Part shown: piece after piece, positions 1-31,582 of the stretch
Position numbering within the stretch: position 1 is the stretch's first letter
Layout: every line of letters begins with the position of its first letter
Virus record (IMG/VR): IMGVR_UViG_3300032305_001731
Span: 1-31,582 of that record
Source: a virus
Lineage: Duplodnaviria > Caudoviricetes
Reading direction: 5' to 3' (one strand)
DNA: 31,582 nucleotides
Position numbers and translations under genes: made by a program
Notes under the pieces: generated by a model
Databases searched by the model: none
What the model saw: the letters and a program-made list of their open reading frames with translations, nothing else
Told to the model about the DNA's origin: nothing

Positions 1-123
1 GCCGTTTACGAGGCCCATATTGGGCCGCTTGCGCCGGGCCTTGACGTGCATCACCGCGATGATAACCCAGGCAATAACTTGCCTGAGAACTTGGTCGCCC
101 TTACGCGGGCTGAGCACCACGCA
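1..123. repeat. Terminal direct repeat, left copy (assembly overlap of a circular or circularly permuted genome)
   Basis: 1-123 is identical to 31460-31582; both the terL and HNH reading frames run through the junction without a stop. Confidence 0.95.
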
Positions 124-294
124 GAGCACAGGCGTGTCGGTTTTGACGTGTTTGGCCCCGGGAGCACAGGCGTCTGCGTTGTCTGCGGCGCCGAAACTAG
201 AACAGTTCGAGCCGTCCCAGCGCAGTATTGCGGAAATACGTGTGTTGTCCGCGCTATCCGAAAGCGTGCCCGTTTACAACTTGAGTGTGGCTGA
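1..294 (+). CDS. Nested HNH endonuclease, 3' part
   Basis: VHHRDDNPGNNLPENLVALTRAEH is an HNH_3-type core; C-terminal CVVC...YCGNTC resembles a zinc site; TGA at 292-294. Confidence 0.85.
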   Translation, partial: AVYEAHIGPLAPGLDVHHRDDNPGNNLPENLVALTRAEHHAEHRRVGFDVFGPGSTGVCVVCGAETRTVRAVPAQYCGNTCVVRAIRKRARLQLECG

Positions 295-493
295 CGGCTA
301 TTTGCCTGAATATTACGCAAACGGCATTCTTACGCATAATTGCCAGATGACCGCCGGCGGATACGAGGGCGATGGCTCGCCTGACCGGGTGGACGCCATG
401 GTCTGGGGCTTCACGGAACTATTTCCGGCAATCAACCGGGCGAAGGCCAAGCCGCGCGAGCGAGAGCGCGCGCCAGTCAGTTGGATGGGATGA
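2..493 (+). CDS. terL: Terminase large subunit, 3' part (intein C-half plus 50-aa C-extein)
   Basis: In frame with 30009 through the overlap; C-extein CQMTAGGYEGDGSPDRVDAMVW carries the last nuclease Asp motif. Confidence 0.93.
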   Translation, partial: PFTRPILGRLRRALTCITAMITQAITCLRTWSPLRGLSTTQSTGVSVLTCLAPGAQASALSAAPKLEQFEPSQRSIAEIRVLSALSESVPVYNLSVADGYLPEYYANGILTHNCQMTAGGYEGDGSPDRVDAMVWGFTELFPAINRAKAKPRERERAPVSWMG

Positions 494-24665: not shown

Positions 24666-24835
24666 GTGCGCCCGACACAGATACGCTCAACCGCTGGCGG
24701 GCCACGCTGGCCAGCTATGGCGGCGCCTATGCCGCGGCGGCTTACACGCTGGGCATCACTGAGGCGCTTTTGCGGAAATGGTGTCCGCCTCCGAAGGCGA
24801 AGGCGCCATACCGGCCTGTCAGGCGGTTTCGGTGA
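24662..24835 (+). CDS. Small HTH-like protein
   Basis: AAAAYTLGITEALLRKW. Confidence 0.5.
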   Translation: MSAPDTDTLNRWRATLASYGGAYAAAAYTLGITEALLRKWCPPPKAKAPYRPVRRFR

Positions 24836-25719
24836 GCAACCCATTTCTGGTCACCGGCCCAGCCGTCATAAGTTTTAGCGGCGGCCGCACCAGCGGCTAC
24901 ATGCTGTGGCGCGTCCTGCAAGCGCATGGCGGCACGCTTCCGGAAGGCGTGATTGTCTGCTTCGCCAATACTGGCCGAGAAATGCCTGCAACGCTGCGGT
25001 TTGTGCAGGACTGCGGTGAGCATTGGGGCGTGTCAATCCACTGGCTGGAGTATCGGCGCGACGCCGAAACTGGCCGGGTTTTTGCTGAAGAGGTCGGCCC
25101 GAACAGCGCCAGCCGCGATGGTGAGCCGTTTGCGGCGATGCTGCAGGGCAAGGGGTTTATGCCATCGCCGGTGCAAAGGTTTTGCACCACTGAACTAAAG
25201 GTTAGGACAATCCGGCGTTGGTGCGTCCAAAACTACGGCAAGGCCATAACATGGACCCAGGTGGTGGGTCTGCGGGCGGACGAGCCGCGCCGCGTTGAGC
25301 GGATCATGGACCCAGCCCGGCAGAAGAAGGCCGGCAAGGAAAGCCGGAACGTCGTTGTCCCGCTTGCGGTTGCCGGCATCACCAAGGATGACGTGCTTGC
25401 CTTTTGGCAGCAGCAACCGTTTGACCTGGGCCTTCGCGGTTCCTGGGAGGGCAATTGCGACGGCTGCTTCCTCAAGCGCCGGTCATTTATCACCCGGCTC
25501 TGGCAAGACGCGCCTGAGCGGGCGGCCTGGTGGGCCCAGCAGGAAGCATTGGCAGCTCTCAAAACGAGCGGTCGCGGTAATAGGTTCCGCAAGGACTGGA
25601 AGGGTGGTTACGACGGCATTCGCCGCGCGGCCGCTGCATCACCTCGGCTGCCCATGCTTGATCCAGATGATGACGCCGCCGACGTGTTTGCTGCCTGCGA
25701 TACGGGGTGTGGCGCATGA
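24832..25719 (+). CDS. PAPS reductase-family (adenine nucleotide alpha-hydrolase) protein
   Basis: ISFSGGRTS PP-loop, FANTGRE, RFCT.ELK, GLRADE..R, GNCDGCFLK. Confidence 0.8.
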   Translation: MSNPFLVTGPAVISFSGGRTSGYMLWRVLQAHGGTLPEGVIVCFANTGREMPATLRFVQDCGEHWGVSIHWLEYRRDAETGRVFAEEVGPNSASRDGEPFAAMLQGKGFMPSPVQRFCTTELKVRTIRRWCVQNYGKAITWTQVVGLRADEPRRVERIMDPARQKKAGKESRNVVVPLAVAGITKDDVLAFWQQQPFDLGLRGSWEGNCDGCFLKRRSFITRLWQDAPERAAWWAQQEALAALKTSGRGNRFRKDWKGGYDGIRRAAAASPRLPMLDPDDDAADVFAACDTGCGA

Positions 25720-26099: not shown

Positions 26100-26406
26100 A
26101 ATCCAAGTCCGCACGGTGCCGCTGCGCGAGCTGGCCCGGCATGTGTCGGAAGCCTACGGCGTCACCACTACCGACCTCGTGAGCGAGCGTCTGACGGGCG
26201 AAATCGTGCGGGCCAGGCTGTGCCTCTACTGGCTCGCCCGGCGCCACACCTTGCACTCCTACCCGACCATTGGGCGCGTGCTGCGGAGGGACCACAGCAC
26301 GGTCCTGAGCGGCCAGCGCAAGCACGCGGCGCGGATGCAGAGCGATCCGCAGGCCGCGCGCCTGACTTTTGAGATTGAAGCCCGAATTTCTGAGGTGACA
26401 ACATGA
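26092..26406 (+). CDS. Stand-alone DnaA C-terminal (domain IV) HTH protein
   Basis: YGV...DL.S.R....VRAR....LAR..T..SYP.IGR.L.RDHSTV. Confidence 0.8.
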   Translation: MDEIQVRTVPLRELARHVSEAYGVTTTDLVSERLTGEIVRARLCLYWLARRHTLHSYPTIGRVLRRDHSTVLSGQRKHAARMQSDPQAARLTFEIEARISEVTT

Positions 26407-26942
26407 GTGAACGTCAACCCGTGTCCCTAAAACTGCGCTTTGACGTGTTCAAGCGCGATGGGTTCATCTGCCAATACTGCGGCGCGCATCCGCCGGCTGT
26501 TGTGCTGGAATGCGACCACATCACGCCCGTGGCCTTTGGTGGCGGCAGTGAAATTGAAAACCTAGTTACCGCCTGCTTTGAGTGCAATCGGGGCAAGGGT
26601 GCTGGCAGCCTGTATGTGGCGCCTCAGTCGCTTGCCGATAAAGCGGCGGAAGTGAGCGAGCGTGAGGCGCAGTTGCGCGGCTACGCCGAGGTGATGGAGG
26701 CCCGGCGCCTGCGCATTGAGGAGGAGGCGTGGCGTGTGTTGGCGCTGCTTTATCCCGGCCAGGATACGGTGCCGCGTGATTCACTCCTCAGCGTCAAGCG
26801 GTTCATTGAGAAACTGGGGTTCCATGGCGTCCTTCATGCGGCGGAAATTGCATGTGGTGGCCCTGCCTATGGCAGCCGCGTGTTCAAGTATTTTTGCGGA
26901 GTTTGCTGGGGGAAACTTAGGGATGCGGAGGCTTGCGAATGA
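26403..26942 (+). CDS. HNH endonuclease (McrA/HNH_5-like)
   Basis: RF.VFKRDGF.CQYCG...L..DHI.P...GG....NLVTAC..CN.GK. Confidence 0.85.
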   Translation: MSERQPVSLKLRFDVFKRDGFICQYCGAHPPAVVLECDHITPVAFGGGSEIENLVTACFECNRGKGAGSLYVAPQSLADKAAEVSEREAQLRGYAEVMEARRLRIEEEAWRVLALLYPGQDTVPRDSLLSVKRFIEKLGFHGVLHAAEIACGGPAYGSRVFKYFCGVCWGKLRDAEACE

Positions 26943-29662: not shown

Positions 29663-30058
29663 ATGGCTGCCTCATCCACCACGCGCCGAGGTAACGGCGC
29701 CGGCTGGGGTGGCGCTGCCAAGGGCGCCGGCAAGCAAGGCGCAGGGCACGGCCAGGGCCGCCCTGACGGCGTGAAAGACGGCCAGGGCAAGCAGGCGCAG
29801 GCCCGCGCAGCCCTGGAAGACGCGCTGCCGCTGGCGGTGCAGACGGTCATCGGCATAGCCGGCGACATCACAGACCAACGCGCGCTGCAGGCCGCGAGCA
29901 ACATCATAGACCGCGTGCTTGGCAAGGTGGGCGACAAGCTGACCGTGGCCGGTGACGCGGACGCGCCGTTGGTCATTCGGCGCATCATTATTGACCCGAA
30001 GGGGCCAGATGGACATTCAGACGCCGCGAGCGTTTCAGCCGTTTCTGCGGCCGAGTAG
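29663..30058 (+). CDS. terS: Terminase small subunit
   Basis: Directly upstream of and overlapping terL; GRP.G motif and AA..I.DR..GK. Confidence 0.7.
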   Translation: MAASSTTRRGNGAGWGGAAKGAGKQGAGHGQGRPDGVKDGQGKQAQARAALEDALPLAVQTVIGIAGDITDQRALQAASNIIDRVLGKVGDKLTVAGDADAPLVIRRIIIDPKGPDGHSDAASVSAVSAAE

Positions 30059-31582
30059 GTACAAAGGGGCGTTTGGGGGCCGGGGAAGTGGCAAAAGCCA
30101 TTTCTTCGCGGAGGCGGTGGTAGAGCGCTGCATCATGCAGCCTGGCAGCCGGATAGTTTGCGTTCGTGAGGTGCAAAAGAGCCTTAAGGACAGCGTAAAG
30201 CGGCTGATCGAGGATAAAATTTCCGCTCTGGGTGTTGGTGGCCGGTTTGACGTGAAGGCCACGGAGATCGGCACGCCGGGGGGCGGGGTGATCGTGTTTC
30301 AGGGCCTGCAGGACCACACGGCCGAGAGCGTCAAGTCGCTGGAGGGGTTCAACGTGGCCTGGGCTGAGGAGGCGCAGAGCCTCTCGGCTAGGTCGATGGA
30401 GCTGCTGCGGCCGACGATCCGCGCGCCAGGCTCGGAGCTGTGGTTTTCGTGGAATCCTCGCAGTGCGGCCGATCCTGTGGACGAGCTGCTGCGCGGCATT
30501 ACGCCGCCGCCCAATGCAATTGTGCGCCAGGTCAACTACAGCGACAACCCGTTTTTCCCGGTTGAGCTTGAGGCCGAGCGCGAATATGACGAGCGGACCA
30601 AGCCGGCGCGGTATGGGCATATCTGGCTGGGCGCTTACGAGCCTGTGGCGATCGGCGCCATCTGGGATCGCCTCATGCTGCACCGTAATCGGCGCCAGGA
30701 CATGCCGGAAATGTCGCGCATCCTGGTGAGCGTGGACCCCGCGGTGTCGAACGAGGCCGGCAGCGACGAGCATGGCGTCGTGGTGGTCGGCATCGGTGCG
30801 GATGGGCGCGGCTACCTGCTGGCGGATTACAGCCTGCGCGGATCGCCCATGCAGTGGGCGGGGCGGGCCGTGGCGGCGCTGGATGAGTTCGGCGCGGACG
30901 CAATCGTGATCGAGCGCAACCAGGGCGGCGACATGTGCGCCCAGACGCTGCGCACGGTGCGGCCGCATCTGCGGATCATCGAGGTGGTGGCCACGCGCGG
31001 CAAGCATGTGCGGGCCGAGCCTATCGCGGCGCTCTACAGCCTGGACCGGATCAGCCACGTTGGGACGTTCCAGCGGCTGGAGGATCAGATGTGCGTGGCG
31101 GCCGGCACGCTGATTGAAACTGAACGAGGACAAATAACAATTGATCAGGTGACAGTTTGTGATAAAGTGCTGACAAGGAACGGCTTTGCCCCAATCAAGT
31201 GGGTGGGTCGGACTGGATCAGCAACTGAGATTGTCGAGATAGCGACATCTCAATCACGATTGAAGGTCACTGCATGTCATCCGATCTTCTTACCGCTTCG
31301 TGGCGAGTTTGTGAGTGCCGGGACTGTGCGGCATACGGACTGCCTGCTCGAAAGCCCCAATTGGGGGTGTATGGCGCGCCCATTGCGTGGCGGGGAAAGT
31401 GGTATCACAGGATGCGCGCCGGTCATTACAGGCACGCCAAGGGAAAATTACTGCACCGAGCCGTTTACGAGGCCCATATTGGGCCGCTTGCGCCGGGCCT
31501 TGACGTGCATCACCGCGATGATAACCCAGGCAATAACTTGCCTGAGAACTTGGTCGCCCTTACGCGGGCTGAGCACCACGCA
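30009..31582 (+). CDS. terL: Terminase large subunit, 5' part (continues across the junction to 493); intein-containing, 647 aa precursor, ~411 aa spliced
   Basis: Manually translated, absent from the ORF track because it runs off the end: MDIQTPRAFQPFLRPSRYKGAFGGRGSGKSH (Walker A), VAWAEEAQ (Walker B), FSWNP, nuclease motifs VSVDPAVS, IERNQGG, RGKHVRAEP, LEDQM. Confidence 0.95.
   Translation, partial: MDIQTPRAFQPFLRPSRYKGAFGGRGSGKSHFFAEAVVERCIMQPGSRIVCVREVQKSLKDSVKRLIEDKISALGVGGRFDVKATEIGTPGGGVIVFQGLQDHTAESVKSLEGFNVAWAEEAQSLSARSMELLRPTIRAPGSELWFSWNPRSAADPVDELLRGITPPPNAIVRQVNYSDNPFFPVELEAEREYDERTKPARYGHIWLGAYEPVAIGAIWDRLMLHRNRRQDMPEMSRILVSVDPAVSNEAGSDEHGVVVVGIGADGRGYLLADYSLRGSPMQWAGRAVAALDEFGADAIVIERNQGGDMCAQTLRTVRPHLRIIEVVATRGKHVRAEPIAALYSLDRISHVGTFQRLEDQMCVAAGTLIETERGQITIDQVTVCDKVLTRNGFAPIKWVGRTGSATEIVEIATSQSRLKVTACHPIFLPLRGEFVSAGTVRHTDCLLESPNWGCMARPLRGGESGITGCAPVITGTPRENYCTEPFTRPILGRLRRALTCITAMITQAITCLRTWSPLRGLSTT
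31274..31582 (+). CDS. HNH endonuclease nested in the intein, -1 frame, 5' part (continues to 294; ~159 aa)
   Basis: Frame is open from 31229; ATG at 31274 preceded by GAAGG (31262-31266); reads ...WRGKWYHRMRAGHYRHAKGKLLHRAVYEAHIGPLAPGLDVHHRDDNPGNNLPENL. Alternative starts at 31367 and 31412. Confidence 0.82.
   Translation, partial: MSSDLLTASWRVCECRDCAAYGLPARKPQLGVYGAPIAWRGKWYHRMRAGHYRHAKGKLLHRAVYEAHIGPLAPGLDVHHRDDNPGNNLPENLVALTRAEHHA
31460..31582. repeat. Terminal direct repeat, right copy
   Basis: Identical to 1-123. Confidence 0.95.

Follow-up and report, generated by a model that had tools for sequence, protein, structure and literature searches.

The terL gene of one temperate phage carries an insert that is open in two reading frames at once, and this raises a question: what does the insert encode, how are its products made, and does it move? 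We address this question in the window, by which we mean the whole stretch of DNA that was analyzed (31,582 nucleotides; IMG/VR record IMGVR_UViG_3300032305_001731), and in its relatives. The reading that we favor, with a probability of about 0.7, is an intein with a likely separately translated HNH endonuclease in the -1 frame. This endonuclease likely nicks empty terL and copies the 708-nt element into it, and the terL product is predicted to splice to a 411-aa TerL. The element is real, mobile-looking, and widespread.

A terminase gene joined across the genome ends

The analyzed window is a complete P22-like temperate phage genome, with portal, coat, and integrase matches, and IMG/VR classes its record under "direct terminal repeats". 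With the repeat merged (Table 1), terL begins at ATG 30009, stops at 491-493, and encodes 647 aa. The initial annotation had proposed that TerL carries a 236-aa intein once the ends are joined; merging the 123-bp repeat confirms this, and all of its coordinates are correct. The N-extein matches Terminase_3 (E=1.3e-28) and Terminase_6C (E=8e-12) in Pfam, as well as TIGR01547 above cutoff. The predicted spliced TerL (411 aa) differs from the intein-free protein P0014 at 1 of 411 residues. In addition, terL is a mosaic (window 30009-30600): relative to the intein-free P0012, P0013, and P0015, the nuclease half is nearly identical and the ATPase half is divergent, with the breakpoint upstream of the intein site.

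Table 1. Features of the terL locus, in window coordinates
Feature	Position	Strand	Remarks
Terminal direct repeat, 123 bp	31460..31582 = 1-123	.	Assembly overlap; inside HNH core
TerL N-extein, residues 1-361, ends ...LEDQM	30009..31091	+	PBSX/Terminase_3 ATPase and most of RNase H-like nuclease domain
Intein, first part, C1 at 31092	31092..31582	+	N-terminal splicing region, about residues 1-90, then unstructured HNH shadow
GAAGG, weak Shine-Dalgarno-like	31262..31266	+	7 nt before ATG 31274; duplex energy -3.8 kcal/mol
Intein block B, T-A-C-H (T60, H63)	31269..31280	+	Ala-Cys codon junction spells HNH ATG in -1 frame
HNH ORF, first part	31274..31582	+	H61 at 31454, H79-H80 at 31508, N92, H101; HNH_3 E=6e-14
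HNH ORF, second part	1..294	+	CxxC about 175-186, CxxxC about 229-243; TGA 292-294 inside intein block F
Intein, second part	1..340	+	End of shadow loop; block F VYNLSV from 272; terminal His-Asn 335-340; TIGR01443 E=0.005
TerL C-extein, begins Cys+1 (CQMTAGG...)	341..493	+	Stop 491-493; identical to C-terminus of intein-free P0014

The host frame: A predicted intein with a featureless middle

The insert spans 708 nt (236 aa), from 31092 to 340 across the merged ends, and ends THN/C at 340/341. It is a predicted class 1 cis-splicing intein: Cys1, TxxH, block F, a His-Asn end, Cys+1, a Hint domain, and an exact empty allele are all present. C1, H63, V214, and N236 are invariant in 75 family inteins, and T60 is kept in at least 90%. 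Hint_2 matches the intein start just above its cutoff (E=2e-6; 28.5 versus 28.4 bits), and the family intein profile matches the gp41-1 intein (E=1.8e-20); a single-sequence search of PDB with the intein gave a weak match (E=0.04). An AlphaFold model of the intein copy on the sister contig L003 has pLDDT above 90 at residues 1-90 and 211-236, which are all-beta, and 46-58 over residues 91-200.

The in-frame text between blocks B and F had been described as motif-less and rich in Thr, Ser, and Cys. The description holds: these residues make up 26% of the in-frame middle versus 10.5% of spliced TerL, and a Pfam scan of this middle returned no match and no in-frame nuclease. A canonical full-length intein with an in-frame HNH or LAGLIDADG was considered and rejected; the HNH lies at offset 2 and nothing nuclease-like lies in frame.

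The -1 frame: An HNH endonuclease

Over the intein, the -1 frame is open from 31229, and an ORF of 159 codons runs from ATG 31274 to TGA 292-294. It was initially read as a stop-free HNH protein of about 159 aa with CxxC/CxxxC, which the HNH_3 match (E=6e-14) bears out. The full protein of L003 matches HNH_3 (E=1.3e-13), the only family that Pfam gives. The protein carries the catalytic His/Asn/Asp of the HNH_3 core, and the core residues H61, H79-H80, N92, and H101, invariant in 71 relatives, are all retained in the window. A single zinc pair is present, versus two in many relatives.

The AlphaFold model of the HNH has a pLDDT of 83.6, with low confidence at residues 1-30. Its best structural match is I-HmuI (PDB 1u3e), a nicking HNH homing endonuclease from a group I intron of phage SPO1, whose kin are described as nicking as well (PMC3428280). 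The match is middling (Z 7.7, below 8; rmsd 3.3; 78 aligned; next match 4.7), and an HNH profile aligns to I-HmuI over the N-terminal hairpin and the HNH core (E=2.7e-5). Unlike the window HNH, I-HmuI is intron-encoded, and its C-terminal DNA-binding part is not aligned; the window HNH has a Cys4 module there.

The suspicion that gene callers miss this HNH is well founded. The L003 protein was not found in a 15-billion collection, among 40 candidates 2 relatives turned up as called proteins, and the records of four cultured phages leave the gene unannotated inside terL.

The HNH frame is the one under selection

The initial annotation asked which frame purifying selection maintains, and the answer is the HNH frame, not the intein shadow: dN/dS is 0.19 in the HNH frame versus 1.15 in the shadow (8 disjoint pairs). 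Mismatch shares by HNH codon position are 0.28/0.19/0.50 (42-codon core, 166 pairs), and by the same measure 0.29/0.17/0.48 in free-standing relatives. For the selection, start, and recoding tests, 20 of 136 rows with gapped cores were dropped.

When the L003 HNH was recoded with synonymous codons, the host frame stayed open in 4% of 300 trials. For 81 relatives, about 3.5 open shadows are expected by chance, and the frame is open in 1 of 19 free-standing relatives; because the class is defined by its open shadow, this excess measures the purging of stops and not prevalence. Because terL is essential and the insert interrupts its nuclease domain, shadow stops are purged unless the intein turns split. 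Encoded in the -1 layout, the same HNH proteins would leave the host frame with 3.35 stops, versus 12.0 in the +1 layout, and this smaller number of stops to purge is the likely reason for the dominance of the -1 layout.

A family of terminase inteins

We searched with six HNH-frame proteins, seeds that are blind to inteins, and took the best 80 of 337 viral and the best 80 of 341 metagenome matches. With the seeds, these made 166 loci, or 136 non-redundant loci after removal of 30 near-duplicates. Among the matches listed, the HNH occupies the -1 frame of a contiguous intein in 87 of the 136 loci, the +1 frame in 6, and the intein frame itself in 1. Both intein halves are present but the host frame is interrupted in 4 loci, and a single half was identified in 7. 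The HNH stands without an intein in 29 loci, and in 2 more it has no intein yet lies inside an open frame. A first scan of genome contigs gave nothing and a deeper alignment gave 51 loci. The 45 non-redundant genome loci consist of 19 contiguous -1 inteins, 1 in +1, 15 free genes, and 10 other or unresolved loci. There are thus at least 106 non-redundant contiguous -1 loci (87 + 19), at many terL sites; the census shares refer to the nearest relatives of intein-borne seeds, not to all HNH genes. These homologues keep the -1 frame open and conserved, as the initial reading presupposed.

The hosts are mostly terminases. When 91 host N-exteins were scanned, 51 had terminase Pfam matches at E<=0.01, and 33 of 42 others match those by BLAST, some weakly; the hosts of L073, which has the -1 layout, and L166 are other proteins. 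Six cultured phages were examined. In Tetrasphaera phage TJE1, Rhodobacteraceae phage LS06-2018-MD07, Highwayman, and phiCDHM19, terL contains the contiguous -1 arrangement without any annotation of it; Vibrio phage 1.238.A (L234) has a split form; and BP10 has a free gene. A lead to a Brucella phage terL yielded no supporting paper and no such record among the rows listed.

Other arrangements occur around this core. In L035, L041, L064, L110, L132, and L234, the same HNH lies between intein halves and stops break the host frame; these fractured terL forms, one of them in a cultured phage, would need trans-splicing. The +1 frame is used in seven contiguous inteins (L036, L037, L058, L070, L084, L106, and L177) at up to four places in the tree. 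In L215, L219, and L204, the intein N half is in frame with the HNH, and L166 (1614-2525), an HNH intein in a methyltransferase/glycosyltransferase protein, is the one in-frame member examined. In an unrooted HNH tree (151 rows, 106 columns), the starred branches call for a minimum of 4 changes to the free label and likewise to the split label, and they allow a single +1 origin. L142 (1223-2600) and L154 (1476-2750) carry a related -1 HNH in an open gene without an intein; the host genes have what we take to be DNA-methylase-like motifs, and the loci resemble ShiLan-like inserts outside actinophages. P0042 (892 aa, Pfam PF06381) carries a close relative of the shadow of the window intein, which suggests that the element jumped into another host gene.

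Where translation of the HNH would begin

Members of the family have their own starts. In 56 of 81 members (9.2 expected), an ATG is found 24-45 codons upstream of the LHR motif; it often follows a stop by a few codons. Shine-Dalgarno (SD)-like duplexes of -5 or below show a modest excess at family ATGs (39% versus 19%, p=0.016). In 81 of 82 cases, the HNH stop falls among the final 30 codons of the intein. Own ATGs, together with slippery heptamers that are not enriched, point to internal initiation rather than frameshifting.

In the window lineage, the usual start position holds TTG 31361, which lacks an SD. Block B carries an open, SD-led ATG or TTG, formed from the intein Cys codon, in 7 of 7 sister elements (p=0.001 versus flanking positions). 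Such a start is present in 12 of 25 members without the usual ATG versus 4 of 75 with it, counts that span several clades and treat related members as independent. Across block B, the host-wobble mismatch share falls from 0.50 to 0.38 in 6 block-B-start pairs (p=0.027), versus 0.50/0.49 in 11 controls (1 of 12 control pairs was dropped). The SD of the window (-3.8) is weak: a value of -3.3 is attained at 42% of control positions. An NTG also arises in the -1 frame wherever a Cys codon follows A, G, or T, and this by-product is seen in 27 of 75 control members (6 open). We favor ATG 31274 over TTG 31361 by about four to one, and the HNH start in the window lineage likely overlaps block B. With start and stop spelled by block B and block F codons, about 30 codons of the splicing domain would also be dual-coding.

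The splicing domain would not be dual-coding if the HNH started downstream, at TTG 31361 or ATG 31412. We regard this as unlikely. TTG 31361 does sit at the family's usual start, about 85 codons after C1, where the sisters L005, L228, and P0153 have a Met; confidence in the HNH model begins near residue 31, and the first 30 residues look unstructured; and ATG 31412 has a duplex of -5.4. However, neither TTG 31361 (-0.1) nor the matching ATGs of L005 and L228 (0.7 and -0.6) have an SD, and four of six sisters (L006, L007, L224, and L226) have no ATG, GTG, or TTG at the equivalent position. A start at 31412 would lose two confident strands and invariant residues.

A promoter and terminator scan found 1 weak promoter-like site versus 0.5 expected and no terminator, and RNA folding at three junction and candidate-start windows found no stable structure (z 0.1-0.8). 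The earlier claim that the HNH is made separately from TerL stands as far as the family-level starts (56/81) and the block-B starts (7/7 sisters) reach. The claim narrows in one respect: both frames likely share one mRNA, so the HNH is uncoupled from TerL only at translation.

Empty alleles and a probable signature of homing

The IMG/VR contig L003 carries the same intein/HNH arrangement uninterrupted. In a comparison of 8 runs with L003, the whole stretch was found in single contigs of X1 and X3, which may be the source samples of the window and L003, and the intein in one X2 contig; no indels across the element are listed in any of the 8 runs. The initial annotation had named an indel that puts the HNH in frame as evidence against its reading, and L003 and the run contigs have none.

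Empty alleles were taken from proteins and run contigs. Contigs that skip exactly 708 nt occur in 4 of the 8 runs (X4, X6, X15, and X16), and since these include DNA runs, the empty allele exists as DNA. X4 and X6 also contain intein pieces, so both alleles co-occur there; in X4 the filled allele is outnumbered (contig depth 2.7 versus 71.6, a rough figure). The RNA contigs of X15 and X16 show the empty allele only, in small shares of the RNA runs, and are silent on expression of the insert. In viral contigs, the exact 21-nt N-extein pattern was found in the L003 contig only. Of 11 members inspected in the P0014 cluster, 6 are intein-free (two with a variant site sequence) and 3 have the intein, and two other TerL clusters mix long and short members, judged by length (P0004/P0137 and P0006/P0139).

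Between the window and L003, the intein differs at 5 of 708 positions, versus 77 of 1080 in the N-extein, 94 of 1139 downstream, and 4 of 153 in the C-extein, with 0 differences in the last 27 nt before the insertion site. Three of the five intein differences alter the protein text of the -1 frame; two of them are inside the ORF, both E to K. This pattern would fit homing with co-conversion: the insert appears ten-fold younger than the DNA on either side, and its borders are short and conserved. Extein and intein trees of 15 same-site proteins had too little support to show incongruence.

It is improbable that an expressed HNH has no role in driving homing, as a decaying copy or terminase cofactor, while the intein moves by recombination or a nuclease acting in trans. 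The single zinc pair, the two E to K changes between strains, and a second, free-standing HNH at 26403-26942 would suit this account, and HNH cofactors of lambda-type packaging are described (PMC3592412, PMC5304195). On the other side, most close TerL relatives lack the insert and therefore package without it, no invariant residue has been lost, divergence in the intein is ten-fold below that of its flanks, and the nearest structure is a homing enzyme, I-HmuI (Z 7.7, middling).

The site has neighbors of its own. An empty-site allele (L003:3256, run X15 record 3) bears a different insert 16 codons downstream, after ...DGSPDR, with an intein-like Cys start, and the TerLs P0007-P0009, P0011, and P0017 have an intein with a similar shadow at this downstream ...DGSPDR site. 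Two inteins appear to compete at neighboring sites of one terL.

Frameshifting and artefact

Programmed -1 frameshifting, which would give a fusion of TerL-N, intein-N, and HNH, is marginally less probable again. It could account for the -1 bias (87 versus 6 among the matches listed), and the -1 frame is open from 31229. Slippery heptamers are sites of the type X XXY YYZ; there is none in the junction of the window lineage, and 10 of 81 members have one versus 6.4 sites expected. Nor is there a stable RNA structure at the three junction windows. Moreover, 56 of 81 members have their own ATGs, +1 members exist, and the -1 bias is explained by the 3.35 versus 12.0 stops.

Compensating frameshifts around an in-frame HNH (the window junction lies inside the HNH, L166 is in frame, and the genome loci L215 and L219 have in-frame N halves) or an RNA intron can be considered refuted for practical purposes by the same text in L003 and whole contigs without indels, the same offset at no fewer than 106 non-redundant loci, empty alleles in DNA runs, and the lack of any Rfam match at E<=1.

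How the element may work

With these alternatives weighed, we return to an intein with its own HNH in the -1 frame. Ribosomes that read terL would make the 647-aa precursor, and splicing would yield the 411-aa enzyme and remove the meaningless shadow. Other ribosomes likely begin at 31274, by internal initiation on the terL mRNA, and would make the free HNH of about 18 kDa. The HNH likely nicks empty terL near the insertion site, an activity suggested by its kinship with I-HmuI, and repair from the filled allele would copy the whole 708-nt element into the empty gene. The window locus makes a good test case, since a near-identical empty allele is known and co-occurs with the filled one.

Comparison with known systems

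The initial annotation pointed to hidden-frame HNHs in some actinobacteriophage insertions and asked for a check of novelty. The novelty of the class falls away: out-of-frame endonucleases of the EndoVII, LAGLIDADG, and ShiLan HNH types are already published. For out-of-frame HNHs inside terminase inteins, we found no publication among the full texts searched, which include few subscription journals.

Gosselin 2025 (bioRxiv 10.1101/2025.01.02.630785) describes inteins of actinobacteriophages whose endonuclease VII-like HEN lies on the same strand in frame 3, and antisense HENs also. The window element shares with these a contiguous intein, a same-strand frame-3 (= -1) endonuclease, and an open, unstructured shadow. 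In the available text of that work, TerL is among the non-canonical intein hosts, invasion by a free-standing HEN is the proposed origin, HNH is listed only in frame, and successful off-frame integration is called extremely rare. Unlike those nucleases, the window enzyme matches HNH_3 and no endonuclease VII family in Pfam, with I-HmuI as its best structural match.

Phillips 2026 (bioRxiv 10.64898/2026.09.14.751524) reports a cyanobacterial dnaX intein with a +2 LAGLIDADG-like ORF endonuclease. Like the window element, it combines an overlapping HEN ORF, a putative SD, purifying selection in the HEN frame, and filled and empty alleles in one population. Unlike the window element, it involves a LAGLIDADG-like enzyme and one bacterial gene and site, and the text available speaks of neither HNH nor terminase. 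The window element works like the Gosselin and Phillips elements and is, by nuclease type, a member of neither group.

Two further systems are related in layout. The ShiLan element of Arsenault et al. 2025 (PMC11855218) is a hidden, out-of-frame HNH in phage DNA methylases, with no intein. As in the window, the HNH lies out of frame inside an open host frame; as described there, ShiLan has no splicing domain, its shadow stays in the host protein, and no RBS was found, whereas intein motifs flank the window HNH. Dassa et al. 2009 (PMC2677866) describe fractured genes, terminase among the hosts, in which a free-standing endonuclease lies between the halves of a split intein. In the window, too, an endonuclease ORF with a likely start of its own lies between the two halves of the intein and overlaps the C half, and the relatives L035, L041, L064, L110, and Vibrio phage 1.238.A share the split form with the same HNH. 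Unlike the fractured genes, the window has an unbroken host frame and splicing would be in cis; the enzymes described by Dassa et al. are GIY-YIG and Vsr-like.

Implications

We suggest tentatively, at somewhat less than even odds, that -1 HNH inteins are a major and stable class of phage-terminase inteins, with a stop (and in several lineages a start) borrowed from motif codons, and that they form a living series for the origin of split inteins through free, dual-coded, and split states. The "extremely rare" successful off-frame integration of Gosselin 2025 stands against 106 or more loci in one HNH family and four cultured phages. Because this one family has free, +1, in-frame, split, and intein-less forms, the invasion model and the split-intein model of Dassa et al. 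are testable within it. Full mobility may be retained by inteins that are classed as mini or decaying, and the counts behind the homing-cycle model would then change. The window locus also indicates that a loop of 110 residues can drift free of selection inside a protein-splicing domain, and it illustrates a second gene overprinted on a catalytic motif.

Elsewhere in the window, on the + strand, the second, free-standing HNH gene (Pfam HNH, E=6.5e-12) lies in the replication region, and a 313-aa ORF at 24778-25719 has a weak PAPS-reductase-domain match (E=3e-4, below cutoff) and is possibly a DNA-modification gene.
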